Shown here: positions 38,451 to 58,861 of the stretch, one piece after another
How the letters are laid out: each line of letters opens with the position of its first letter
How positions within the stretch are numbered: the first letter of the stretch is position 1
Source: a virus
Lineage: Duplodnaviria; Heunggongvirae; Uroviricota; Caudoviricetes
DNA length: 64,000 nucleotides
IMG/VR virus record: IMGVR_UViG_3300002054_000021
Coordinates: 13,864-77,863 of that record
Reading direction: 5' to 3' (one strand)
Program-made: the position numbers and the translations under genes
Notes under the pieces: generated by a model
Database searches by the model: none
What the model was told of the DNA's origin: nothing
Seen by the model: the letters and a program-made list of their open reading frames with translations, nothing else

Positions 38451-39338
38451 ATGGAAATAGATGAAAACAATACAAACTTAGAGGGTACACAACCAGTAGT
38501 TCCTGCGTCAGAACCAGCTTCTGCTGTTGACCTAGCTATTGAGAATGTAATCGCTGGGGGTCAAGCTGAAATTTCTTCATTAAAAAAAGAAATAGAAGAC
38601 CTAAAAATTAAACTTAGAACTGCCGAAAGGGAAGGTGAAAAGTATCAAGAAGAAGCTAAGAGAGAAGCTAAGAAGACAGGCGCTATTATAGAAGAGAAGC
38701 GTGTCGTATTAGAAAAACTCAAAGCACTTCAGTCAATGCACGAAGGTGTGGATGAGGAGACTGCTAGAGAAGTTCTTAAAAGAGCTAGAGAAGGTGAAGG
38801 ATCTGATTTCGAGACTGAAAAAGCTAGACTTGTTGATTCTGCCATCAATGAATTCAAGGAAATGAATTATAATCCTATTCTTGATGAGCTTCAAGAGGCG
38901 AAAGATACAGTGGCTAAGTTTAAAAAGAAGCTGCATAATGCTGTAGTTAAGTCTGAGATTATAAATAACGCAATTAAATATGGCGTTAATCCAGAATTAG
39001 CTGAGTATGTAGTCCCTGAGTTTGAAAATAGACTAACTATCAACGAAGAAGGCGATAGGGTTTATTTAAATTCAGAAGGTTATCAGTCACCAACTTTCGA
39101 CTGGAAGGGAAATCTTCTAGTCCTTAAGAGTGAAAAGCCTTCACTGTTTCTGAGAAGTACTGGATCTGGAGCTAAATCATCGTCAAGCGTTGATATACTC
39201 AGAGAAGACTTAAACCCTTGGGTTGCGTCAACAAGAGACAGAACTGCTCAAATGAGAATCACGACAGCAGATCCTGCAAAAGCTGCGAAGCTTAAAGATG
39301 AAGCTGACAAGATTAATAAAAAAGCAAGAAAAAAGTAG
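38451..39338 (+). CDS. capsid scaffolding protein
   Basis: Charged coiled-coil directly before MCP; C-terminal PSLF..S.GSGA and NPW motifs. Confidence 0.78.
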   Translation: MEIDENNTNLEGTQPVVPASEPASAVDLAIENVIAGGQAEISSLKKEIEDLKIKLRTAEREGEKYQEEAKREAKKTGAIIEEKRVVLEKLKALQSMHEGVDEETAREVLKRAREGEGSDFETEKARLVDSAINEFKEMNYNPILDELQEAKDTVAKFKKKLHNAVVKSEIINNAIKYGVNPELAEYVVPEFENRLTINEEGDRVYLNSEGYQSPTFDWKGNLLVLKSEKPSLFLRSTGSGAKSSSSVDILREDLNPWVASTRDRTAQMRITTADPAKAAKLKDEADKINKKARKK

Positions 39339-39357: not shown

Positions 39358-39382
39358 GGGCGGCTTGGGTCGCCCAATTTTT
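39358..39382 (+). terminator. hairpin between scaffold and capsid genes
   Basis: gggcggc-ttgg-gtcgccc plus T-run. Confidence 0.5.
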
Positions 39383-39403: not shown

Positions 39404-40453
39404 ATGGCAACATTTAATGAAATTATTTGCGACCCTAGCGCTCCGATAATCTGCGGTGAAGCAATGAGAGATTATCTCTTAGATTGCGACATGCGTAGAG
39501 CTAACGAGTACTGGGATAATGGTATTGTCCAAGAATCTGCAAGAGCACAAACTTTTGCTCAAGGGTGCCATAAGGCTGCTCAAGAGAAGTTCTGGCTTCC
39601 AGTTGAATATGCTGAAGGTGGAATTGTAGCTTGTGGTACAGAAGAAAATCTTGGTGATGCAGACTGTCCAGATTGCGAAGGATTAAAGCAAGATACAGAA
39701 ACAATGTTCAAGCTTTACACTCGTAATTGCTGGGCAGCTGCTGACTGTGAGGCTCAGTGCCAATCTTGTGATGAAGACGATGTTATTGACATTGTTATCT
39801 CAAGAGTTGTTACGCCTTACATGGTTAGAGACAATGTTGAGAAGCTTTTCTCTCAAGCTGTTGGTCTTTATGCATGGGCTGATGGTCAAGCCGCTGATAT
39901 CAAGGACGAGATGATCGTTGATCTTGGCACAAATGAACTTGATCACTGTGCAGGCATTGACCTTAACAACATGAGAGATTGTGGTGAATTTGATGGACTT
40001 TATGTTCATAAAAACGTTTACGTTGCTATGAGAAAGTCTGGATGTCTTCAAGAGAAAGTTTGCTGTGGTGACACAGATTTCGAATTTGCATCTCTAGCTG
40101 ACGGAACAGTTATTATACCTGTTTCACGTCAAATAGCTGACAGATACCTTGTTGACCCTGCTGGAGATTACATCTCTATTGCGTTCAACTTTGGTGCTTT
40201 TGAATACGCTGAGGGATGTCACAAGACTCCATTCGAGCGCTACAGAGACCCTAAGGCTCACTGTGGTGACGGAATGGAATCTATCTTCTTCAGACGTGAA
40301 TTTGTTCTTCGTCCATTTGGTACGGAGTTTGACACAACTGGTCTTGCAAAAGACTATGCTAGCCATGCAGAACTAAGAGACGGCGCAAGATGGAACGTTA
40401 AGATTCCTCTTGAGTTCTTCGGACTTGGTTTCGTTAAGTCACAAATTAATTAA
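39404..40453 (+). CDS. major capsid protein (HK97 fold), Cys-rich
   Basis: Synteny after scaffold; C-terminal ERYRDP...GDG.E....RREFVLRPFG.EF......AEL....RW pattern of siphophage coat proteins; strongly biased codon usage. Confidence 0.78.
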   Translation: MATFNEIICDPSAPIICGEAMRDYLLDCDMRRANEYWDNGIVQESARAQTFAQGCHKAAQEKFWLPVEYAEGGIVACGTEENLGDADCPDCEGLKQDTETMFKLYTRNCWAAADCEAQCQSCDEDDVIDIVISRVVTPYMVRDNVEKLFSQAVGLYAWADGQAADIKDEMIVDLGTNELDHCAGIDLNNMRDCGEFDGLYVHKNVYVAMRKSGCLQEKVCCGDTDFEFASLADGTVIIPVSRQIADRYLVDPAGDYISIAFNFGAFEYAEGCHKTPFERYRDPKAHCGDGMESIFFRREFVLRPFGTEFDTTGLAKDYASHAELRDGARWNVKIPLEFFGLGFVKSQIN

Positions 40454-40459
40454 TTTATG

Positions 40460-40488
40460 TGGTGGGCTTCGGCCCACCATTTATTCTT
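40460..40488 (+). terminator. terminator after capsid gene
   Basis: tggtgggc-TTCG-gcccacca (cUUCGg) followed by tttattctt. Confidence 0.8.
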
Positions 40489-40507
40489 AAGTTTAGGAAG
40501 GTTAATC

Positions 40508-40699
40508 ATGGAAAATATCGAAGAGAAAAAGGTAGACGGAGAGAAGGCTGTTAAAGCTCCTGATCCTAAGCCTGTAGTTGCAGTTGCTCCTAAGCCTGTA
40601 GTTGCAGTTAAGCCAGCTCAAAAAAATAATGTAGCCATTGCTGCAGATAGAAAATCTGCTAGAAGAGGCTCAAAAAGCGTCGTTAAGTTACTTAGATAA
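40508..40699 (+). CDS. small low-complexity protein (PKPVVAV repeat)
   Basis: Start MENIEEK at 40508 after SD GGAAGG. Confidence 0.6.
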   Translation: MENIEEKKVDGEKAVKAPDPKPVVAVAPKPVVAVKPAQKNNVAIAADRKSARRGSKSVVKLLR

Positions 40700-41271: not shown

Positions 41272-42261
41272 ATGGCAAAGAAAAGAGTTTTAAGAACAGC
41301 TCCTAATAGAAATTTCAGAAGATCAAACTCTAACCGCCGCCCTACGGGTGGTGGATTTTCTGTTGGAGCAACCATAATTAAACCTGCTTGCGGTGAAGGT
41401 GGCGCTCCAGTAGTAATAGAGAATACTTGCGATAATCCAATACCTATTGAAGCATGCGCTCCGATTCCAGTTATTGTAGAAAATAATGTACAAATAGAAA
41501 AAATTACTTACTGTAATTTAGATACTGATACTCATTGGATAAAAGTTTGCTCATATTCTATAGATGCATCAGGGACTCCAGTAGAGACGGTTCTATCAGA
41601 AAGTGATACAGGAATACCGTGCGATGAATTCCCTCCAACTCCTCCACAAATAGAAAAAATATCATATTGTAATGATTTAACCAAAACGACTTGGATAAAG
41701 GTGTGCGCATATGCCTTTAATTCTACAACAGGAGTAACAACTGAAACTGTTTTAAGTGAAACAGACTCTGGTGTTCCTTGCGAATTAAATCAGACTGCAG
41801 CAGAAATAAAATGCTTTGAGATGTGCGATGATGTCAATGGAGACTTCACATCCATTACGACATTTTACGAAATATCTTTAGTTTATTACGATGGAACATT
41901 TCTACAAAAAGTAGATCTAGGGTCGTTTTTAGACACAGATGGTCAAACGCCTTACGTCCCAATAAACCCACTTCCCTGCAGCGATATAGGAAGAGATATA
42001 ATTGAAAGTCAAGGAAGAGTAGTTCTTCAAGGTGGATCTTGGTCTCCATCACCTATAATAAAATCATACACAATAAGGGTTGATGTTGTTGCGAATGAAG
42101 CAAATCCTCCACAATTCACAGACAGCTTTGGAAACACCACCCCTTTGTTTGAAGGGGAAACTTTCGGCTACTCATTTACATGTGTCAACGTAGATACAGA
42201 ATCTTTTGTCAACTCATCTGCAGGTGACAGAATTGTTATAACCTACATTCAGGGAACTTAA
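41272..42261 (+). CDS. Cys-rich structural protein with tandem ~55-aa duplication
   Basis: QIEKI.YCN.....WIKVC.Y......TETVLSE.D.G.PC occurs twice. Confidence 0.7.
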   Translation: MAKKRVLRTAPNRNFRRSNSNRRPTGGGFSVGATIIKPACGEGGAPVVIENTCDNPIPIEACAPIPVIVENNVQIEKITYCNLDTDTHWIKVCSYSIDASGTPVETVLSESDTGIPCDEFPPTPPQIEKISYCNDLTKTTWIKVCAYAFNSTTGVTTETVLSETDSGVPCELNQTAAEIKCFEMCDDVNGDFTSITTFYEISLVYYDGTFLQKVDLGSFLDTDGQTPYVPINPLPCSDIGRDIIESQGRVVLQGGSWSPSPIIKSYTIRVDVVANEANPPQFTDSFGNTTPLFEGETFGYSFTCVNVDTESFVNSSAGDRIVITYIQGT

Positions 42262-42262
42262 T

Positions 42263-45200
42263 ATGTCTAAATGCGATAATACTTGCGGAACAAAGATAAT
42301 TGAAATCAATAATACTACTGTTGATATCACAAATCTATCCGAAAATGACATTACCAATCTTTTAAATCAATTTAACTTTACTGACCTTACTGCTGAGCAG
42401 TGTCAGGACATATTCCAATGCATTATTAATAACGGAACAATTCAGCAGTTTGTTGAATTTCTCCAAAAATTAGACTTCTCTCAAATGACTGCGCAACAAT
42501 GCGCTGACATATTAGCTTGTATTGATTTCACAAACTTAACACCCATACAGTGCCAAGCTATACTTGACTGCATAATTACAAATATTACTCCAGCTCAAAT
42601 TACAGAGTTGACGAATGTAATAGATTTTACAACATTAATTAATAACCTAACGCCGACTGAGCAAGCTGCTCTTTGTCAGGCTATAATTGATGCTGGGTGT
42701 GATTTAACTGAGCTTATTGATTTTACTCAATTATCAACTCAACAGCAAACAGATTTAACCAATCTTATTGAAAGTCTAAACCTTACTCTATTAACTGTTA
42801 CAGCAGGTGCTACAGCTGCCGCTGGTGATAATTCTAATGGTCAAGAAGTTGTTTCAATAGGTGACACAATTCACTTCTGGTCAAGCGACGATACCATAGA
42901 TATAAATGTCTCTGCAGGATCTGCGATTGTTGACTTAACTGTTGACCCAATATCTCACCCTGAAGGCTCATTGGTTTCCTGTCTTGAGGATTCTCCATTA
43001 TTAAATAATGATGGAGGGTCTCCTAACTCCTATCAATACACAACTACATTTACCCCGCATATAACAGGAGAATATGATCTTAATTATTCTGTAGGATCTT
43101 TTTCTGGCGGCGGTTCAGATCCGTCATTTTTTATAAATGTAGGCACCTCTGCAGGTGCTTCAGATGTATTTAACGGAGGTGGCACAAGATCTCTTCAGTC
43201 AAGCCCATCTGTAACAACAACTATAACCCTAACTCAAAATGTTGAATACTTTTTCACAGGTTTAGCAGGCGGGGGATCGATAGCGGGAGATATAACATCA
43301 TGTATTTCTCAGAAGGGGTTATCACAATTTATTGAAACCGCAACTGAATCTACTGAGCTTTGGGCAACATGTATTGATTGTTATACTCAAAATGCAGGTA
43401 TTTCTACACAAGGAAATCCAGTTGGAGGTGGAGGTTTTGCAACAAATGAATTCAATCCAACGCTTGGCGTTTTTACTATAACACCTACTGCAAACATAGC
43501 TGTTCCAGAATTTTTCAAAATAAGGATCGAGGACGCTAGTGATGGCGATCAACCTTTAGAAATATCTATTTCTGGTAGTGATGGGTCATCCGCTACAGCA
43601 ACAGGGGTTGGACCACAGTCATTTGATAATGGTATGGTAGATTTCTCTATTGCATTTGGATTCGTATTTCAGGCTGGTGTAACATATACATTTACACCAA
43701 GTACAGTAAATACGTTACCTGCAGGTGATGTTGTAACAATGTTTGCTGTTGAGAATAGTAACTCAGATCCTATTGACTTCCTGTCAGACTCATCTGATGG
43801 CGCTGGGGGTAATATTCCAGAGCTTGTCCCAGAAATAATTATAATAGCGGAATCAGACACAACTGCAAAAGTTATTACTCTATCTGATAACTCTTTAAAG
43901 TTTTATGATGAGTCATTAGTAGAAATTTCTGGATTGACATCAGTACCACCTGCTTGGCAGCGTTGCGGCCTCACAGATGTTGAACAATCTGAAGTCAACG
44001 AGCTTATTCAAGAGTTAGTCCCAGATAATATAAATTTAAACACATATATATCAACAAACTTCACTTTAAACCCAGTTAACAATACAGATATAGCAACAAG
44101 AACGCATACTTGGACTGGCAGCTCTCCTGTCAACGGAACGGTAACAATACCTGCTTCAGAAGATCCTTCAAGAGAAAGATTTTGGGTTATAAATGACAGT
44201 CCAAATGGAACAGACTTAGTTATCGATGCATCAGCACTACCTACTGGACTTGATGATGGCTCTCCATCAATTATCCCAGCTGGATGTAAAGCAGATATTT
44301 CTTATGGTGAGTTTGGTGATAAAGCTTATGTTCACCTTACATGCGGTGAAGGCGTTTTAGCTGATTATAATACTCCAAGTGTAATTTGTAAATTATTGAT
44401 ATTTGACCCAGTTTCTAATGGAGAGCAAACTGGAATAGCTAGCCTTGATGGGCCTATCCCTCCTAATCAAGACCACTATCTAATGTACACATTAGAATCT
44501 AAAGATACGAGGTTCGTAGGTAGTCATCCATCAGCTAACAAGAATTTAGTTGGTGTATACTGGGATGGGGCAAACTGGTTAGTTGAGCAATCAAGCGCAG
44601 GGTCTGATGCTGTATTTACACCAGTTGACACTGATGTACTAGTTTCTGAAATTCTGACAACTGGAACTCCAACTGCAATTGCCGTTGCTGGTAATGTGAA
44701 TGGAATACAGAGTGTTGAAAATAACGGTGGTCTTTTATTTGCAGCCAACCAGTTTAATGGAGCTGCAAATACTGGAGAAATCGACATTATTGGAGGTCAA
44801 CTCGATACTGGAGTAGTCGAAAAATCATACCTTCAACTAGATGGAACTTATTTACTTCCAGATGGGTCATTTCAAAGTGTGAGTGATGTCGTAGCTGACA
44901 ATTGGATTGTTTGTTCAGATGAAGATTTAGATAACTCAGGCGTTGTGACTACAGCTGTAACTGCACTAACAACAACTAACGGTGTAAATATTAATATCGG
45001 TGATGATTACATTGAGTTTCCAGACGGAACAACTTGGGCAACAGGTAGCGCATCTGCATCTGGAGTTAATTCAGTAATTGGTGAGCATGTGGACAACACA
45101 GATTCTTCAAACCCAATTGTTAAAACTTGGATTAAAGAAGAGTGCTTCTTAGAGGCACAGTTACCAGTAGCAGCTATTGCATCATCATTTTATGACAATA

Positions 45201-48200
45201 GGATAGCAACCACAGGACAAACATTAACAGCAGAAGGTTCTCACATCGGATTCGTTGGTGAGGAATTCCGTGTTGATTTATCTGATTTTACCGCTCCCCT
45301 TATTGCCGATCAAGTAAATAATGATTGGTACTTAAGACAAGTTATTCTTGATCGTACTGGGGCACCATTTAACGCATCCAACACTTTCAATCTTTCTTTA
45401 ATATCGTCTGATGGTACAATTAAGGGCACGTCTGCTAATGCCAGTCTTGCTAATGTTGGGCCAACTATATTTAACTTTACGCAAGCTCAGAATTTAAAAG
45501 TAGAAGACGGAGATTACTGGAGGTTTGGCGGAGGTGCTAACTTCCAAGGGCAAATATCATCCGTTCCTGATATAGATGGTAGATGGGAAACGACAGGGGA
45601 TGACCCTTCATTAAGCGGCGGGCCTTTCCAAGGAGCAGCAGAAGACTTAGATGCTGGTGACGCCCTACCAATGAGTTTTGCTTTTGAACAAGTAGGTTTA
45701 ATTCCACGTATACTTAGAACATATGATGATGGATCATTATATCAAATAGACAAAACAACAAACACAGCAACTCTGGTTGTTTCTATACCTACAAATTGGG
45801 TAGAGATTTCTTGTGATCAAGATATAACTGTGACTGGTGAACATGTATCACAAGAAGGTCTTAATATTGATGTTAAGACGTGGATTAAAGAAGAGTGCTA
45901 TGATGAGGCTGTATTCACCCTTGCCTCTGATGCTTCTGGAGCATCAGGTGGAGACACTACTATTGCGGCTGTCCTTGGTCAAGGTAATGGCGGTCAATGG
46001 ACTGTTCCTGCTGGGACAACTTACAACACTGTTGACGGATTTGGAAATCATTTTCATGGTGGTGTAGATGGAGTTGTTGATTGGCAGATAACTAATACAA
46101 CAACAGGTCAGATAATAAATGCAGTGACCAATTACATAGCTGCTGATGGAACTATTGGCGGTGTAGACGGAGGTCTAAATGTAGGACAAACTGGGCCTTA
46201 TACTTTCTTACCAAGCCCACTATTTGTTAGCGCTGGAGATGTTGTTAACTTTGTTATTACTTCTGATACAACAGGAGCAAACTGGAGGAGGTCTCAGCCA
46301 TTAGGAACTGTTAATGACGCAGATTGGGCGTGGCTACTCACTGGTCAGGTGAATAAGCCTTCATTTGCCCTTTACTCAAACGACCCGAATCAACATGTAG
46401 TTAGAACATATAATGATGGTTCTATATTTGAGGTAAATAAAACAACAAATACCGTCTCTGAGGTTACATCAATTCCAACGAGCTGGAATAAATCATCGTG
46501 CTTAACTGATGATGAAGTATCTCAAATAAACGATTTGATTGAAAGCGCTATAGATGATAGTTCCATATCAACGCAATTCAGAAAAGTTTGTTTTTCACCT
46601 ACAGACACATTTATTGCAAAATCAACAATTTATGAGCACTATACTTTAGAAGATGAGGTGTTTATTAGTTTAGGTTATAGCTCATCAAATATATATAACT
46701 CTGCTAATTTAGTTGACATCACAACACTGGACGGGGGTGGATCTGTTTCCGTTGGTGAGTGTCCTTGTTGTCACTTAGATTATTCAAATATATCTATTTA
46801 CAATGCGTTTGCTGCCGCTGGGACTATAACAGGAACGGGTAAGGCTAATTCTTCAAATCCTAACATTTCTTTTAACCCAGCAGTTGGTGCAACGCAGGTA
46901 GAAACAATTGAGTTCTTTTCTCCAGTTAACAATAAGTTTATTGATGTGGAGGCTTCAGTAACTAGAGTTTCTGGATCTGGGGATTTAGTCTTTAATACTG
47001 CGATATCAAGATGGACTCTCAGCTCTCCTGCTGCTGTATTTGACCTTACTATGAAAGTAGTGGATTCTAAATTTGGTATTGACGCGGATATTGATTGGAG
47101 TTTCTCAGTTTCAAGTGTCGGCGGCGGAGATCTTGTAAATTTTGTTACTCCTATAGATGATTACATTCAAAACGCAGGCGCTCCTAACTTAACACTTCCT
47201 TACACAGGAAATTGGAGTAATGGAAATAATAATGCATCTTCATCAATGAGGATGTCTGGATACAATGAGGTATCTTTAAGGTTCACAACTGCAAACGCAG
47301 TAAACTTCACCATGTCTATGGCTCTCTTAAGTGGACCTAGTATTGAAGAATTTGATACATGTTCGTTAACAGGTACGGATTCTTGGAAATCTTTTGTTTC
47401 TAGATTGGAAGACTCAGGTAATTCTTGTACCCCTGTTGATTGCGTTGAGGTTCTTGGAGATCCAGTTCAAATTATCGAAGTTGCGGGAGAAATGACTCTT
47501 CAGAGAGCTTATAATGTTGTGACAACATTTGTGGACATGACTTCAGATTCAACGCTATTGACAGCGGATGTTGATAAAACCGCACAAGCTTCAGCCCTTG
47601 CAACCCACCTTCAGGGCCTTGCGGGTGTTGTTGGTGTAGTCACTGCAGTAGGAGAAACTGTTGAAATATCTGCCCCTGCAGGACAAGGGACTGTGTCTTC
47701 GGTTAGATTTGAGGTTGCTCCTTTGGAGTTAAACTTTAGAGATTCAGATTCTCCTGTTGAAACAGTCCTTGACACTACATGGACTCAGACAGATGTCGCT
47801 ACAGGTCAAGTTGTAGAAGTTACGTTTGGTACTGCAGATGCTTTATCTGGACCAACAAGCGGCAACGGTGTCGTAATGAGAAATCAAATTGCAGGTGTAG
47901 TTGGTAACATCACTACAAGCGGTGGCCTTGTGCCAACGAGAATGAGATCTCAGTTTAATGATTTAGATTTCGGAGCAGGAACGGAAGAGCAAATGTCTTT
48001 CAATCCTACTCCAACAAGTGCAGATGTTGTTAATGGATCAGGATCTTTAACTGGAAACGTATTCATATCAGACGTTTCTAATACTGATGTAAGTATTTTT
48101 TCTGATGGCAACAATATACAGTTTGATGTTCTCTCTGATATGTCATCCAATAGAGGTATTGGAGTAAGACAAGTACAATTATTCTGGGATTACGATGCTG

Positions 48201-50368
48201 TAATTACAGAGGTTCAAGGACCTGTCACTCAATTAGTTAAATGTGGTGATGATTTCCTAGATTTAGCAGGAAATGTAGTTGCTGCTCCAGCAGAATATCT
48301 TCCTTGTGGAGTTTATGAATACTTAAATGGATTTGAATCTGGCGGCGGAATTACGGTAACAGACAATGAAGACGGATCTTATACTATCTGTAATGACACA
48401 GAGTGTGTCACAATTGATATTTGTGCTGATATTGCCAGTTATTGTGGATCAACAGGAGGTGTTGATACATTTGGAGCAGTTGTAAATGCTACTGCGGCAA
48501 TCACTACTACAAACGGTGTTAGTGTTGCAATTGGTGAAGATTATATAGAGTTCCCAGACGGGACAACATGGTCTAACGCTATTTGGACAGTAGAGTCGTT
48601 CTCTACGGACACTACTACAACAGGTGTAAATGACGTACATCACAGGTTCGCCGCATCAGCAACAGCTCCAGTAACGCTAACCATTGGCGGTGCAGGCATT
48701 TACAATCCTGTAGGAAGTAGAAAGCAAATAAGCAATAATAATCCAACTCATGCTGTAACAGTTGTTGTTGATGGATTTGATCTGCTTGACTATGCTCAAG
48801 ATACTAACGGGCCAGTTTCATCATTAACAATTAACGCTGGTGAGACATATGAACTAACAAAAAATGCTGGAGAAAGATGGACTGTTACAGGTAAATACCC
48901 TGATAATAGCGGTGAGGTCTTAGTATCCGCAAATTCATTTACGTCTACGAACAATGAAAATGTAAACATTGGTGATGAATATATTTCATTCCCTAACGGA
49001 GACACATGGTTTTCACCTGATGTTCTTCCGCCTATTGGGTGGGTTGAGCAAACTGTTGGAAATGGTTCGACTGTTAATGGTCAAGAAGATATTCACTACA
49101 TTTACACTGATGCAGGCGGCATAGTAAACTTCAACTCTACTGGAACACCTAACTCAAGATGGCAGATAACCAATAACGGAACTGGGGCTGCAACATTTGA
49201 TGGCTCTGGAATACCTATAGTAAACGCACCAGATGGAGATGAGTTTACTCTGGAAGTGGGTCAGTCAGCATTGTTGATGACTACGTCAACTGGGCAGAAT
49301 CAAATACTAAATATTTGGCCTGATAGTGGTGCTTGGACATTTGGAGACTTTAACTCAGCCACACAATTAACTGATGGACTTGGAGATAAGGTTTGGAGGT
49401 TTAATGCAGGTGTAGCTACACCAATTAACTCTACTTTAACTATAGACAGAAACGCTCATGCATCAGGTCAGAGGTTAGTGGTTATTAACAATCATAGTGA
49501 TCCATCCTCTATTCTCACTCTTGCAATTAATAACGGGGGTGAGTTCAGTGACACTGGTTCTGGCGGCATCACAGTCCCGACTATATCTATCGCCACAGGT
49601 GAGAGATACACATTAGTTAGAAATACTGGAGGTTTTTGGACGGTCACAAGCAAGTACCCTGAATCGGGTGCAAGCTCAGGTGGCGGCTCTATCGTAGAGG
49701 GATCTTTTACAGGCACCGCTAACCAAACACAGAATTTTGGTAATTTTGCACAGAACTGGTTTGATTTTGACCTTTTATTCCAAACGTCAACAGGGCAAGG
49801 GCAGCGAAGCGCATTAATTTTGGAAGATGGGCAATCTCAGCTTAGACACTTCACTGGAGTCGCTGGTGTTGAAAGCACGTTGAACATGCAGGATTCGTTT
49901 AGTCAGCTTCAATACAACACAGGTGGTCAGGTATCATCGTGGCGTGTTGATGCAGATGGGCTTGTGTTGGTAACAGGAGGCGGCGATTTAAGAGTTAATT
50001 TCAATGCAGGTACTTCAGGCCAACAACTTACTTCCCAAGGGGCAGGAAATGCACCTATATGGGGCGCGGCTTCTGATAAACGAGTTAAGAAGAATATTAA
50101 AACATTAACCGATACAACTAATCGCTTGTCGGGCATTCGTGGTGTTTCATTCGAATATAAGAATGATGGCGCTAAAACATACGGCGTTATTGCTCAAGAA
50201 GTTGAGGTCGATAATCCTGACTTAATACAGGAACAAGAAAACGGAAGTATTAAAGACTTCAAAACTGTAGACTATAACGGCATTACAGCCCTTCTTGTTG
50301 AGGAAGTTAAGTCTCTTCGCGAAGATTTGAAAGCAGCTCAGAATGAAATCAAGAAGTTAAAGAATTAA
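42263..50368 (+). CDS. giant fibre/spike protein with C-terminal peptidase S74 intramolecular chaperone
   Basis: 2701 aa; C-terminus ASDKRVKKNIK...IRGVSFEYK...YGVIAQEVE....LI...TVDYNGITALLVEEVK plus coiled coil. Confidence 0.85.
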   Translation: MSKCDNTCGTKIIEINNTTVDITNLSENDITNLLNQFNFTDLTAEQCQDIFQCIINNGTIQQFVEFLQKLDFSQMTAQQCADILACIDFTNLTPIQCQAILDCIITNITPAQITELTNVIDFTTLINNLTPTEQAALCQAIIDAGCDLTELIDFTQLSTQQQTDLTNLIESLNLTLLTVTAGATAAAGDNSNGQEVVSIGDTIHFWSSDDTIDINVSAGSAIVDLTVDPISHPEGSLVSCLEDSPLLNNDGGSPNSYQYTTTFTPHITGEYDLNYSVGSFSGGGSDPSFFINVGTSAGASDVFNGGGTRSLQSSPSVTTTITLTQNVEYFFTGLAGGGSIAGDITSCISQKGLSQFIETATESTELWATCIDCYTQNAGISTQGNPVGGGGFATNEFNPTLGVFTITPTANIAVPEFFKIRIEDASDGDQPLEISISGSDGSSATATGVGPQSFDNGMVDFSIAFGFVFQAGVTYTFTPSTVNTLPAGDVVTMFAVENSNSDPIDFLSDSSDGAGGNIPELVPEIIIIAESDTTAKVITLSDNSLKFYDESLVEISGLTSVPPAWQRCGLTDVEQSEVNELIQELVPDNINLNTYISTNFTLNPVNNTDIATRTHTWTGSSPVNGTVTIPASEDPSRERFWVINDSPNGTDLVIDASALPTGLDDGSPSIIPAGCKADISYGEFGDKAYVHLTCGEGVLADYNTPSVICKLLIFDPVSNGEQTGIASLDGPIPPNQDHYLMYTLESKDTRFVGSHPSANKNLVGVYWDGANWLVEQSSAGSDAVFTPVDTDVLVSEILTTGTPTAIAVAGNVNGIQSVENNGGLLFAANQFNGAANTGEIDIIGGQLDTGVVEKSYLQLDGTYLLPDGSFQSVSDVVADNWIVCSDEDLDNSGVVTTAVTALTTTNGVNINIGDDYIEFPDGTTWATGSASASGVNSVIGEHVDNTDSSNPIVKTWIKEECFLEAQLPVAAIASSFYDNRIATTGQTLTAEGSHIGFVGEEFRVDLSDFTAPLIADQVNNDWYLRQVILDRTGAPFNASNTFNLSLISSDGTIKGTSANASLANVGPTIFNFTQAQNLKVEDGDYWRFGGGANFQGQISSVPDIDGRWETTGDDPSLSGGPFQGAAEDLDAGDALPMSFAFEQVGLIPRILRTYDDGSLYQIDKTTNTATLVVSIPTNWVEISCDQDITVTGEHVSQEGLNIDVKTWIKEECYDEAVFTLASDASGASGGDTTIAAVLGQGNGGQWTVPAGTTYNTVDGFGNHFHGGVDGVVDWQITNTTTGQIINAVTNYIAADGTIGGVDGGLNVGQTGPYTFLPSPLFVSAGDVVNFVITSDTTGANWRRSQPLGTVNDADWAWLLTGQVNKPSFALYSNDPNQHVVRTYNDGSIFEVNKTTNTVSEVTSIPTSWNKSSCLTDDEVSQINDLIESAIDDSSISTQFRKVCFSPTDTFIAKSTIYEHYTLEDEVFISLGYSSSNIYNSANLVDITTLDGGGSVSVGECPCCHLDYSNISIYNAFAAAGTITGTGKANSSNPNISFNPAVGATQVETIEFFSPVNNKFIDVEASVTRVSGSGDLVFNTAISRWTLSSPAAVFDLTMKVVDSKFGIDADIDWSFSVSSVGGGDLVNFVTPIDDYIQNAGAPNLTLPYTGNWSNGNNNASSSMRMSGYNEVSLRFTTANAVNFTMSMALLSGPSIEEFDTCSLTGTDSWKSFVSRLEDSGNSCTPVDCVEVLGDPVQIIEVAGEMTLQRAYNVVTTFVDMTSDSTLLTADVDKTAQASALATHLQGLAGVVGVVTAVGETVEISAPAGQGTVSSVRFEVAPLELNFRDSDSPVETVLDTTWTQTDVATGQVVEVTFGTADALSGPTSGNGVVMRNQIAGVVGNITTSGGLVPTRMRSQFNDLDFGAGTEEQMSFNPTPTSADVVNGSGSLTGNVFISDVSNTDVSIFSDGNNIQFDVLSDMSSNRGIGVRQVQLFWDYDAVITEVQGPVTQLVKCGDDFLDLAGNVVAAPAEYLPCGVYEYLNGFESGGGITVTDNEDGSYTICNDTECVTIDICADIASYCGSTGGVDTFGAVVNATAAITTTNGVSVAIGEDYIEFPDGTTWSNAIWTVESFSTDTTTTGVNDVHHRFAASATAPVTLTIGGAGIYNPVGSRKQISNNNPTHAVTVVVDGFDLLDYAQDTNGPVSSLTINAGETYELTKNAGERWTVTGKYPDNSGEVLVSANSFTSTNNENVNIGDEYISFPNGDTWFSPDVLPPIGWVEQTVGNGSTVNGQEDIHYIYTDAGGIVNFNSTGTPNSRWQITNNGTGAATFDGSGIPIVNAPDGDEFTLEVGQSALLMTTSTGQNQILNIWPDSGAWTFGDFNSATQLTDGLGDKVWRFNAGVATPINSTLTIDRNAHASGQRLVVINNHSDPSSILTLAINNGGEFSDTGSGGITVPTISIATGERYTLVRNTGGFWTVTSKYPESGASSGGGSIVEGSFTGTANQTQNFGNFAQNWFDFDLLFQTSTGQGQRSALILEDGQSQLRHFTGVAGVESTLNMQDSFSQLQYNTGGQVSSWRVDADGLVLVTGGGDLRVNFNAGTSGQQLTSQGAGNAPIWGAASDKRVKKNIKTLTDTTNRLSGIRGVSFEYKNDGAKTYGVIAQEVEVDNPDLIQEQENGSIKDFKTVDYNGITALLVEEVKSLREDLKAAQNEIKKLKN

Positions 50369-53844: not shown

Positions 53845-54651
53845 TTGAGCAAAGGGATGGTTAAAAATTGCAAACACTGTGAAAAAGAATTTCACGCAAA
53901 CAATGTGTGTCAGATTTACTGCAATAAAGAATGCAGGGATGCATTTTACAATAAACGGGCTAGGGGTAATAATTTTACACCCATTGAAGTAAATTGTCTT
54001 AATTGCGGAGATAAATTCACTCCAAAAAGCACAGCTGTGCATTGCTCTAAAAAATGTGCGTTACAATATTGTCATAATGTTAGCGTAGGGCACATCGAAA
54101 AAGATAAAAACGATTGCAAGTTTTGCAATAAAGATATAACTCACAAAAGAGTAGATGCGAAGTATTGCGGCTCATCTTGTAAAATTAAAGATAGGGCAAA
54201 AAATAAAACACTAAACTGCTCAATGTGCGAATCTGAATTTACAAAAGTCGGCAACAAGACAACTTGTTCTGATGAATGTAGAGATGAGAAGCGAAGAATA
54301 GCTCACAGAGAGCGATCTAGGCGTCATTACATTAAAGTGAGAGCAGGAACACCAGAAGGCATTATTAAAGACAGGTTAAGAACTAGATTTTATAACGCCC
54401 TTAAGGGAGAAACTAAATCTGCTTCCACAGAAGAATTATTAGGATGCACGATTGCGCAAGCAAAGTCGCATCTTGAATCTCAATTCTTAGAAGGTATGAG
54501 CTAGGATAATACTTTTGAGTGGCATATAGATCACATAAAACCATGTTCATCTTTTGACTTAACAAAAGAAGATCAGCAGAGAGAGTGTTTTAATTACATT
54601 AATCTTCAACCATTATGGGCTTTTGATAATTTAAGTAAGGGTCCAAGGTAA
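53845..54651 (+). pseudogene. zinc-finger-array HNH endonuclease interrupted by in-frame TAG (54502-54504)
   Basis: CxxC...CS..C repeats; reading through TAG gives GMS*DNTFEWHIDHIKPCSSFDL...CFNYINLQPLWAFDNLSKG, where this family normally has GMSW.N. Confidence 0.8.
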
Positions 54652-56747: not shown

Positions 56748-57074
56748 ATGGCAAGTCAAGATTGGAGAAAGACTAGGCAATACCGTATCTGGTCCGCAAG
56801 AGTTAAGCGTAGGGATAAAATTTGCCAAATAATTGGCTGTGGTAGAAGAAAAAATGGACACGCACACCATATAAGAAATGCGCATCATAGTCCAGATTTA
56901 AAATTTGATGAAGATAATGGTATAAGATTGTGTTCAAGGTGCCACTGGATGGTGCATAATGTAGTTAGGCCAAGTTATAGATATAAAACAGGCCCAGAAC
57001 ACATTGCAATACTTCAAGCCATATCAGTAATGGTTTCAAAATTACCAGAGAAACCATCTTTTTATAAAAAATAA
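56748..57074 (+). CDS. small HNH endonuclease
   Basis: RDKICQ..GC...HAHHI...NGIRLCSRCHWMVH. Confidence 0.82.
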   Translation: MASQDWRKTRQYRIWSARVKRRDKICQIIGCGRRKNGHAHHIRNAHHSPDLKFDEDNGIRLCSRCHWMVHNVVRPSYRYKTGPEHIAILQAISVMVSKLPEKPSFYKK

Positions 57075-57161: not shown

Positions 57162-58058
57162 ATGAATAAAGATATAGATAGCTTTAATTGCGGAATATAT
57201 AAAATAATAAATAAATTAAACAATAAGTTCTATTTAGGTAGCTCTAGGGATATAAATTCAAGAATAAAGCAGCATAAATATAAATTGAAAAATAAAAAAC
57301 ATCATTCTAAAGCTCTTCAAAATGCTTGGAATAAATATGATGAAGGTAATTTTTATTTTAAACTTGTAGAAAGTTGTGAAGAAGGTAATCTCTTGGTTCT
57401 TGAGCGGTATTATTTAGATAATTATTATGGTGATTATAACTGCTCAAGGATAGCTTCAGGTGGAAATTCTCCATTAAGCAAAGAAGATGTTGAAAACATC
57501 ATAGATTTATTCTTAACTGGAAGGTATAATTGTACATCTTTAGGGGAATTTCTGAGTATAAGTAATCGCGTTGTGTACGATATATGTAGAGGTAGGACTT
57601 ATAATTTTTATAATATAAGTGAATCTAAATTAGAAAAATGTAAACACCTACTTCAGTTGTCAAAGCGAGGAAAGTCAAACCCTTTATCACCCTATGAAGT
57701 TTCGTCGATATTGTGGATTTTAGATAATTTAGATGTGACTTATAAATCTATAGCTAATTATTTTGATATTTCTAGAGGCATGGTCTCTCACATAAGAAAA
57801 GGTAGAGTGTATAAGGGCGTAACTGACAGAGTCGAAAGACACGATTTAGTTGATATCTTAGGGGAGACAAGACCCAGAAGGGCGATTGAAATTTCTAGAT
57901 GGTCTATTTGTGGTGATTATATAGATGATTGGCCTTCTGTAAATAGCGCATGTGTGGAGGTCTTGGGCGACAAAAATTTTAAAAAGCAAGTTAGAATGTG
58001 TTGTGATGGACTGCTTAGTGATTTTGGTGGTTTTGTGTGGAAATATAATAAGGTTTAA
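57162..58058 (+). CDS. GIY-YIG homing endonuclease with HTH and NUMOD1-like domains
   Basis: CGIYKIINKLNNKFYLGSS...R...H; C-terminal W.SV..A..E.......V..CC.G......FVWKY. Confidence 0.85.
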   Translation: MNKDIDSFNCGIYKIINKLNNKFYLGSSRDINSRIKQHKYKLKNKKHHSKALQNAWNKYDEGNFYFKLVESCEEGNLLVLERYYLDNYYGDYNCSRIASGGNSPLSKEDVENIIDLFLTGRYNCTSLGEFLSISNRVVYDICRGRTYNFYNISESKLEKCKHLLQLSKRGKSNPLSPYEVSSILWILDNLDVTYKSIANYFDISRGMVSHIRKGRVYKGVTDRVERHDLVDILGETRPRRAIEISRWSICGDYIDDWPSVNSACVEVLGDKNFKKQVRMCCDGLLSDFGGFVWKYNKV

Positions 58059-58063
58059 TAATT

Positions 58064-58861
58064 ATGAAGACGTCATTAGAGGGTATAGAGTTAATTAAGG
58101 CTCACGAAATGCTTATGCTTGAGGCTTACTTAGATCCAGTTGGAATACCGACAATAGGATGGGGTCATACAGGCACAGTTGATCATGATGATGTAATTAA
58201 TAGAAGGACTATAACTGAAACAGAAGCTTTATCACTTATCAGGTCAGATTTAAAAGATACAGAGAAAGGTGTTTTAAGAAATGTAAGAGTTCCTTTAAAT
58301 CAAAATCAGTTTAATGCTTTAATTAGTTTTGTTTTTAATACTGGAGAAACTAATTTTTCAAAATCAACACTTTTGAAGAAATTGAATAGAGGACAGTATG
58401 ATGAAGTTCCGTTTGAGTTATCTAGGTGGGTATTTGGAACTGACCAAGATACTGGGGAAAAGGTAAGGTTAAATGGACTTGTCAGAAGAAGGGCTGATGA
58501 AGGTAAAGTTTTCATAACTCCAGTAAACTCAACTCCTGTGCCAAGTCAAGGTGCAAATCAGACCACCATGCCTAATATATCAACATCTCCTAGCCCTACT
58601 CCAGTTAGGATAGAAAGATCAAGAGTTAGAGATTCCAGAACAATGAAAGCTGGTACGGTAGGCGCTGTAGCAGGTGTAAGTGCTGGGGCTGGGAAAATGA
58701 CTAATTCTTTAAGCACCTTTACGGAGGAAATGTCAGTTAAAGTTCCTTGGTTTGATGACGCTATAGCTATTTTAATAATAGGTGGCGTTACCGTTGCTGT
58801 TATATCTGTTGCTGTGATGATGTTTTGTAGGTGGAGTGATATAAAATCAGCTCTTAATTAA
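58064..58861 (+). CDS. endolysin (GH24 lysozyme) with C-terminal hydrophobic helices
   Basis: IKAHE...AYLDPVGIPTIGWGHT, NQNQFNALISFVFNTG, GLVRRRADE. Confidence 0.9.
   Translation: MKTSLEGIELIKAHEMLMLEAYLDPVGIPTIGWGHTGTVDHDDVINRRTITETEALSLIRSDLKDTEKGVLRNVRVPLNQNQFNALISFVFNTGETNFSKSTLLKKLNRGQYDEVPFELSRWVFGTDQDTGEKVRLNGLVRRRADEGKVFITPVNSTPVPSQGANQTTMPNISTSPSPTPVRIERSRVRDSRTMKAGTVGAVAGVSAGAGKMTNSLSTFTEEMSVKVPWFDDAIAILIIGGVTVAVISVAVMMFCRWSDIKSALN

Follow-up and report, generated by a model that had tools for sequence, protein, structure and literature searches.

We have analyzed the major capsid protein (MCP) gene of an uncultured tailed jumbo phage, located at positions 39404..40453 on the plus strand of a 64,000-nucleotide stretch of DNA (referred to here as the window) from IMG/VR virus record IMGVR_UViG_3300002054_000021. 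Its product, a protein of 349 amino acids with the unusual number of 18 cysteines, is an HK97-fold protein of the type of SPP1 gp13. Within that family it is placed in an old, uncultured and uniformly Cys-rich branch. The explanation that we favor for this composition, with a probability of roughly 0.55, is that the MCP shell is locked by disulfide bonds formed after release of the phage, with up to nine of them per subunit. The evidence comes from the conservation of the cysteines within the lineage, from their location on elements through which capsid subunits contact each other, and from the gain and loss of certain cysteines as partners. The genome record to which the window belongs has 208,360 bp and is estimated to be 93% complete. 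Most of the stretch is present in just one sequencing run, labelled as an algae metagenome, and this may be the source sample.

Identity of the major capsid protein

Profile matches, predicted fold, position in the head module and copy number all identify the product of this open reading frame (ORF) as an HK97-fold MCP of the SPP1 gp13/PHROG 247 type, and confirm the function given in an original prediction made from the nucleotide sequence of the window. PHROG 247 ('major head protein') matches residues 18-332 with an E-value of 7.8e-14. A profile of the wider family matches SPP1 gp13 (PDB 4an5 and 6r3a) with E = 1e-103, and the profile of the close clade alone does so with E = 2.8e-11. The AlphaFold2 (AF2) model, based on 90 sequences, has a predicted local distance difference test score (pLDDT) of 89 and a predicted template modelling score (pTM) of 0.87, and contains a 34-residue spine helix (residues 127-160). 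The top 50 matches to this model in a Foldseek search of the PDB are all phage capsid proteins, the best being 6r3a with template modelling (TM) scores of 0.65-0.70. There is only one match to an MCP in the 208-kb genome, and the window protein is thus the sole MCP found there. Directly upstream are genes for the large terminase, the portal, a MuF-like head-morphogenesis protein and the scaffold; the order portal, MuF-like protein, scaffold and MCP is shared with the head module of SPP1.

The start codon of the MCP gene is supported by the homologues, which begin at the equivalent point, by an AGGA sequence 10 nt before the ATG, and by two hairpins that bracket the gene. Both hairpins are GC-rich, have a T run and resemble terminators. 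One (39358..39375, plus strand; 7-bp stem with 6 GC pairs) lies between the scaffold and MCP genes, and the other (40459..40480, plus strand; 9-bp stem) is found 6 nt past the MCP stop codon. The earlier remark that this is a gene of the highly expressed type would agree with the AGGA and the flanking terminator-like hairpins.

Cysteine content and its conservation

A script count places the 18 cysteines of the MCP at residues 9, 17, 28, 55, 77, 88, 91, 109, 115, 119, 122, 182, 193, 214, 220, 221, 272 and 287. They include three clusters, CPDC (88-91), CEAQCQSC (115-122) and VCC (219-221). The original prediction had listed the same clusters and counted 18 Cys in 349 amino acids, or about 5%, which matches the translation exactly. 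The Cys content of the MCP (5.2%) compares with a mean of 1.95% for the complete 208-kb genome, calculated over 292 non-overlapping ORFs (binomial P ~2e-4); the mean for the ORFs of the window alone is 1.65%. Among genome ORFs longer than 300 amino acids the MCP has the top Cys fraction, and the ORFs that exceed it, in the subset that was scanned, encode HNH-type nucleases or unannotated proteins. A compositional bias was considered as the cause and rejected, given this genome mean, the 0.6-0.7% Cys of the portal and head-morphogenesis proteins and the complete lack of Cys in the scaffold. HK97-fold MCPs are usually Cys-poor, as had been stated. Among 1,508 clusters of gut-phage MCPs the median Cys content is 0.2-0.5% and MCPs with at least 6 Cys are rare (10.64898/2026.07.03.736451); gp13 has no Cys and 65 relatives of the window MCP have only 0-4.

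Relatives were sought among 5.8 billion and 1.8 billion proteins, and few close ones were returned. These are 13 proteins with ~32-79% identity to the window MCP, all uncultured and most with 16-24 Cys. Conservation of the cysteines in homologues, which the original prediction had proposed as a check, is clear: nine Cys are invariant in the first 10 homologues (38-79% identity) and further Cys are nearly so, while sites 77, 91, 115 and 287/288 are invariant in the 16 closest relatives. The remote relatives split into a set with 21-29% identity and 6-24 Cys and a large number of SPP1/Jersey-type proteins with 0-4. In a tree of 94 full-length MCPs, in which every Cys was masked, a single branch with a support of 91 separates all 29 MCPs with at least 6 Cys from the 65 with at most 4, so one change of state suffices to account for their distribution. 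Convergent Cys enrichment inside the family was rejected on this basis. A subclade with 8 Cys is nested in the Cys-rich clade; about a dozen Cys were lost there secondarily. In four related loci, with 36-52% GC and including the prophage described below, the head module once more has its Cys outlier in the MCP, next to a scaffold with 0-1 Cys, a portal low in Cys and an ordinary terminase. Together, the Cys-masked tree and these four loci indicate an old trait that is specific to the shell protein and does not depend on base composition.

No cultured member of the Cys-rich clade was found among 50,697 phage records, in which the best matches have 0-1 Cys or are Cys-poor Jersey/Kagunavirus types with 22-26% identity. 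Scans of IMG/VR and JGI metagenome contigs identified no related loci, and a scan of genome contigs identified one, on a 14.5-kb contig (JBMYWT010000071.1; L007/L006) binned with a Maricaulaceae metagenome-assembled genome (MAG). The MCP encoded there has 18 Cys, is 38% identical to the window MCP and adjoins MarR, DnaT-like and beta-lactamase-family genes. There is a weak hint that the Cys-rich lineage infects marine Alphaproteobacteria, the class that also contains the host of phage Milano, discussed below. A deep-clade MCP with 11 Cys lies in an apparent prophage on a 593-kb contig of a 3.4-Mb bacterial genome (GCA_947493255.1; L014), and the lineage therefore includes temperate phages of ordinary size and not jumbo phages only.

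Location of the cysteines on the capsid fold

The gp13 sequence, taken from the SPP1 record, was aligned with the MCP in two ways, by profile hmmalign and by a second alignment, and the domain limits are those of PMC6813328. In the SPP1 capsid, contacts between capsomers are made by the N-arms and E-loops, each E-loop covering a neighbor's N-arm as well as its P domain, and the A-loops close the centre of the hexon (PMC6813328). By alignment, as opposed to coordinates, the cysteines of the window MCP are concentrated on such inter-subunit contact elements, as they are in disulfide-crosslinked capsids. The groups described here are all on the plus strand. Three are in the N-arm (C9, C17 and C28; 39428..39487), where C17 corresponds to gp13 residue 11, and C9 and C28 fall in unaligned stretches and were placed by offset. 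C77, C88 and C91 (39632..39676), which include the CPDC cluster, are at the tip of the E-loop and align to gp13 residues 67-75 within E-loop 57-84. This loop is ~15 residues longer in the MCP than in gp13, and the confidence of the AF2 model is low in this region (pLDDT ~63). The CEAQCQSC cluster is part of a group, C109, C115, C119 and C122 (39728..39769), in the P domain, on the strand and short helix leading up to the spine helix. The first three of these correspond to gp13 93-105, and C122 is in a short insert just ahead of the spine helix's N-terminus (gp13 ~109).

In the A domain, C182 and C193 (39947..39982) are placed on either side of helix 181-188 by the model and the gp13 mapping. 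The VCC cluster and C214 (C214, C220 and C221; 40043..40066) are in the A-loop according to hmmalign, which puts them at gp13 195-201 within A-loop 194-207; the second alignment puts C214 at gp13 192 and leaves C220/C221 unaligned. The last two cysteines are C272 in the P domain and C287 at the P-loop (40217..40264); C272 corresponds to gp13 Q250 in a conserved YAEG motif and C287 abuts the P-loop at 261-264.

Overall, 13 of the 18 cysteines are in loops of the AF2 model, compared with 40% loop for the whole protein, and the sequence around them is more hydrophilic than the average (P 0.037). Counts by domain over 32 Cys-rich relatives reveal the same preference in the lineage. The A-loop has the highest share of Cys (13%, a 3.2x enrichment), followed by the strand and helix before the spine (8.9%), the N-arm (6.6%, 1.6x) and the E-loop (6.4%), and the P-loop region is likewise enriched across the lineage. 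Cysteine is nearly absent from the spine helix (1 in 1,343 residues, 0.1%) and makes up ~1% of the A-domain core. This pattern is equal in the close clade and the deep clade.

Covariation of cysteine sites

Each site was scored for the presence of Cys in the 16 closest sequences, using a tree from which the Cys columns had been left out, and P values were obtained from changes simulated on that tree. In all 16 sequences Cys is either present at both 122 and 272 or absent from both, and each of these sites has changed three times (simulated per-pair P ~0.003); the pair recurs in most deep-clade sequences. Agreement between sites 9 and 119 is found in 15 of 16, with joint independent losses in two relatives, P0006 and P0003, the latter encoded on a 102-kb contig (P ~0.025). 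For sites 88/89 and 109 the agreement is complete (16 of 16), with one change. In line with pairing, 12 of the 16 proteins have an even number of Cys. Thus conserved cysteines are gained and lost as partners, for which the evidence is strong at 122-272 and suggestive at 9-119 and 88-109, and covariation suggests partners for 6 of the 18 cysteines of the MCP. Sites 178 and 347/348 covary as well (simulated per-pair P ~0.008). Seven close relatives end in ...KSCC (347, 348) and also have C178 and C255; all four of these have been lost independently in the window protein and in P0003. When Cys is lost, C272 is replaced by R and C109 by K, and these two sites therefore tolerate charge.

A proposed disulfide-locked shell

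In the mechanism that we propose, MCP subunits would fold and assemble in the reduced state in the host cytoplasm, around a scaffold that has no Cys. The phage encodes one ordinary thioredoxin, which does not separate the readings considered here. After lysis into oxic water, the 18 thiols would oxidise to form up to nine disulfides per subunit. By homology with the contacts in SPP1, C122-C272 is predicted to be an intrachain staple at the tip of the P domain. The C9-C119 bond would tie the tip of the N-arm to the P-domain tip of a neighboring capsomer. In SPP1, residue Tyr3 of gp13 reaches a different capsomer, where it makes contact with the P domain of a subunit (PMC6813328), and C9-C119 may be an inter-capsomer link because C9 sits at the offset of Tyr3. 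The C88-C109 bond would tie the E-loop tip to the P domain of a neighbor, at the position of the HK97 isopeptide, and the three A-loop cysteines may ring the centre of the capsomer. Stapled covalently in this way, the shell would have little or no need of cement protein. The original prediction had offered a disulfide lock, set by oxidation after lysis, side by side with a metal-thiolate alternative and a role in uncoating. Judged from the conservation, loop placement and pairing seen in the sequences, the disulfide lock appears to be the best reading, and the other two parts of that proposal are not supported. The precedent of phage Milano and the presence of cysteine-supply genes in the genome (see below) are also in favor of the lock.

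Several points weigh against such a lock. The genome encodes no sulfhydryl oxidase of the Erv1/ALR type (PF04777), and oxidation would therefore have to be spontaneous. The covariation sample consists of only 16 sequences, in which ~55 site pairs were compared, and consequently chance is clearly exceeded by 122-272 only, and not by 9-119 taken by itself. Four of the 16 proteins have an odd number of Cys, which implies that some thiols must be free. The assignment of bonds within or between subunits is based on a gp13 alignment of ~20% identity, not on Cys-Cys distances. In that alignment C9, C28, C122 and C287 were placed by offset or by flanking residues, and the A-loop placement is found in one of the two alignments. 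In the gut-phage survey the conserved cysteines of MCPs are mostly isolated and buried (10.64898/2026.07.03.736451), so that conservation alone is no proof of disulfides. A predicted complex of two MCP copies had a score of 0.02 and no interface, and is evidence neither way.

In its most extended form the disulfide lock would be a chainmail that dispenses with cement protein, with inter-capsomer bonds from the tips of the E-loop and N-arm to the P domain, a ring of A-loop bonds at each capsomer centre, and on the order of 10,000 S-S per particle, the phage-encoded cysteinyl-tRNA synthetase (CysRS) and tRNA-Cys feeding the demand for cysteine. The number of bonds assumes T of about 21-25, a rough scaling from genome size. 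We consider this form tentative and rather unlikely.

The cysteines might instead form local intrachain disulfides only, which would rigidify the E-loop insertion, the P-domain tip and the A-loop, with the shell held together non-covalently or by decoration proteins. The best-supported pair, C122-C272, is within one P domain, and several of the cysteines are close in sequence (77/88/91, 115/119/122 and 214/220/221). Milano gp9 has intrachain bonds too, and the 329-amino acid Cys-rich protein encoded downstream of the MCP (see below) is a candidate decoration protein. However, the enrichment of Cys across the lineage includes the N-arm and E-loop tip, which in SPP1 and in phage Jabs mainly touch other subunits, and C9 at the N-arm tip covaries with C119 at the P-domain tip, a contact whose SPP1 equivalent is made with another capsomer. 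An exclusively intrachain arrangement is therefore improbable in our judgement.

A further alternative, which builds on the metal-thiolate clusters of the original prediction, is that some cysteines, such as the invariant C77, C91, C115, C220/221 and C287 or those of the A-loop around the capsomer axis, are ligands of Zn or of an Fe-S cluster, either inside one subunit or shared by several, and that the metal cements the lattice. CxxC and Cx3Cx2C spacings do occur in the MCP, and the A-loops of SPP1 converge on the centre of the hexon, a geometry that could form a shared site. The invariant core cysteines never vary, so covariation assigns them no partners and they cannot be judged by whether ligands are kept or lost as a set. 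Similarly, C17, C28, C55, C182, C193 and C214 are all absent from the 8-Cys subclade, the first five having been lost on the branch leading to it, and are not resolvable into pairs. On the other hand, the MCP matches no Pfam family at E-values up to 0.1, and PHROGs returns only major head protein families, so no metal-binding family is represented. Nor do the cysteines of CEAQCQSC and CPDC behave as sets. C115, C119 and C122 are not one unit, since each variable member tracks its own distant partner; C88, C119 and C122 are each lost together with that partner while their motif neighbors stay, unlike the ligands of one site. Loss in distant pairs and not in local motifs favors disulfides over a metal site in CEAQCQSC. 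In addition, the solved Cys-rich phage capsids have disulfides and no metal sites. Metal-thiolate clusters at the named motifs are accordingly disfavored, and we regard a metal-cemented lattice as quite unlikely.

Least credible is the possibility that the thiols stay reduced, as packing residues or as sacrificial antioxidants against reactive oxygen species near photosynthetic algae; the algae metagenome as possible source, the four relatives with odd Cys counts and the argument of the gut-phage survey for isolated, protonated and buried Cys in many MCPs would be in line with it, but the location in hydrophilic loops, the charged replacements, the paired losses and the avoidance of the fold core and spine helix are not, and 18 exposed thiols would be unlikely to stay reduced in oxic water.

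The suggestion that the cysteines provide a redox-switchable uncoating strategy does not suit a tailed phage, and a portal, a tail fibre and a large terminase are all encoded here. Capsids of tailed phages remain outside the cell and the DNA is ejected through the portal. The capsid thus never meets the reducing cytoplasm on entry, and redox uncoating does not apply.

Comparison with other capsids

The chainmail of HK97 gp5 consists of Lys-Asn isopeptide bonds that form autocatalytically during maturation and link the E-loop to the P domain of a neighbor. By analogy, the putative C88-C109 bond of the window MCP would hold the corresponding position, although the chemistry differs, thiol oxidation taking the place of isopeptide formation.

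Within its own family, the window MCP shares the HK97 fold with gp13 of Bacillus phage SPP1 (4an5, 6r3a; PMC6813328). It differs in its 18 Cys, where gp13 has none, and in the size of the genome that it must enclose (208 kb), whereas SPP1 packages 44 kb in a T=7 head with the auxiliary protein gp12. The Cys-enriched MCPs of gut phages resemble it in that the enrichment is conserved in particular MCP lineages (10.64898/2026.07.03.736451). Their median is 0.5%, however, and their cysteines are buried, isolated and located at the A/P beta-hinge, in contrast to the 5.2%, the exposed loops and contact elements and the paired loss found here.

A structural parallel is mycobacteriophage Jabs, whose solved T=9 HK97-fold shell is made of two MCPs and has 955 disulfides and no cement proteins (10.64898/2026.07.24.740622). 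The Jabs disulfides run from the N-arm of one subunit to the E-loop, the P domain or the P-to-A linker of its neighbors (10.64898/2026.07.24.740622). Compared by structural element, the parts of the subunit that bear disulfides in Jabs are those enriched in Cys in the window lineage. Jabs has about two disulfides per subunit, while up to nine would be possible with the single MCP of the window phage. In the Agrobacterium myophage Milano a disulfide network extends through the virion; gp9 forms inter- and intrachain disulfides, and dithiothreitol (DTT) abolishes the extra stability of the virion (PMC10491603). Milano gp9 has 10 Cys in 465 amino acids (2.2%), is processed by a protease and depends on linkers and a minor capsid protein (PMC10491603). 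The window MCP has no significant BLASTP similarity to gp9, and homology between the two was rejected. Cys455/456 of gp9, a C-terminal CC, form one interchain and one intrachain bond (PMC10491603). The C-terminal CC of close relatives of the window MCP, which co-occurs with two distant Cys, recalls this arrangement; the window MCP itself is without it. Phage 7-7-1 is grouped with Milano as a disulfide-network comparison.

The novelty implied by the original prediction was overstated, since disulfide-crosslinked HK97 capsids have been solved for Milano, where they are DTT-sensitive (PMC10491603), and for Jabs. The window MCP would be a denser and independently evolved version of this known strategy, preceded by Milano (2023) and Jabs (2026).

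Neighboring genes and cysteine supply

The head scaffolding protein (38451..39338, plus strand; PHROG 206, E 2e-12), an internal and transient partner of the MCP, has 295 amino acids and 0 Cys. No prohead protease was found in the PHROG scan, another resemblance to SPP1. The genes that follow the MCP encode, in order, two small Cys-free proteins, a 329-amino acid protein with 13 Cys and a protein of 2,701 amino acids. The first of the small proteins was listed as an 80-amino acid ORF (window 40457-40699), the start of which falls within the terminator-like hairpin behind the MCP. The homologue in a related locus (L004) begins at MENIE, and the real product is therefore probably ~63 amino acids long with a start near 40508. 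It is rich in Lys, Pro and Val, basic and without Cys, and its position behind the MCP is conserved.

The 329-amino acid protein (41272..42261, plus strand; 4.0% Cys) is a candidate outer head or decoration protein, on the basis of its Cys count and of an N-terminal region shared with relatives. That region is basic and is common to Cys-rich proteins encoded behind the MCP in two related loci (L004 and the Maricaulaceae-MAG contig, L007). The protein also contains two tandem units of ~50 amino acids with the pattern IEKI(T/S)YCN...WIKVC.Y...ETVLSE(S/T)D.G(I/V)PC. Neither Pfam nor PHROGs has a family that matches it, and its Atlas neighbors were not convincing. The 2,701-amino acid protein (window 42263-50368) has a tail-fibre-like end (PHROG 1980, 5481) and 36 Cys; its first 150 residues contain 10 of these and its last 600 contain none. 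Scattered across the structural and lysis region are two HNH endonuclease genes, one encoding a product with 19 Cys in 219 amino acids, and a GIY-YIG homing endonuclease gene (53845-54504, 56748-57074 and 57162-58058); an endolysin gene is next (58064-58861). Outside the window, a 241-amino acid protein with 14 Cys (genome 80478-81203; L008 3479-4204) is without a family match; it is conserved and Cys-rich and may be part of the virion. It is 30% identical to a 253-amino acid protein with 19 Cys on the Maricaulaceae-MAG contig.

The genome encodes a full-length CysRS (199925-200827, L010; PF01406, 350 bits), and a tRNA-Cys(GCA) gene is located ~1.6 kb past the end of the window (79478-79566; L008 2479-2567). 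These two may be tied to the demand of the capsid for Cys, and would then help to supply it for late protein synthesis.

Implications

If the disulfide-locked shell is correct, this lineage would indicate to what extent HK97 shells can rely on thiol chemistry in place of isopeptide bonds and cement proteins. A 349-amino acid subunit of the SPP1 type, small and undecorated, could then contain a genome of 208 kb, and its disulfides would be about four times as dense as those of Jabs. Should the bonds extend to a full chainmail, the capsid would be the densest covalent network known among capsids, a redox analogue of the isopeptide chainmail of HK97 that is kept throughout the lineage. The analysis yields three testable residue pairs and may tie capsid composition to the CysRS and tRNA-Cys of a jumbo phage. 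HK97 shells that lock themselves and can be opened by a reductant would also be of interest as nanocontainers. For the family as a whole, a single chemical trait would define an entire uncultured branch of a well-studied group of capsid proteins.

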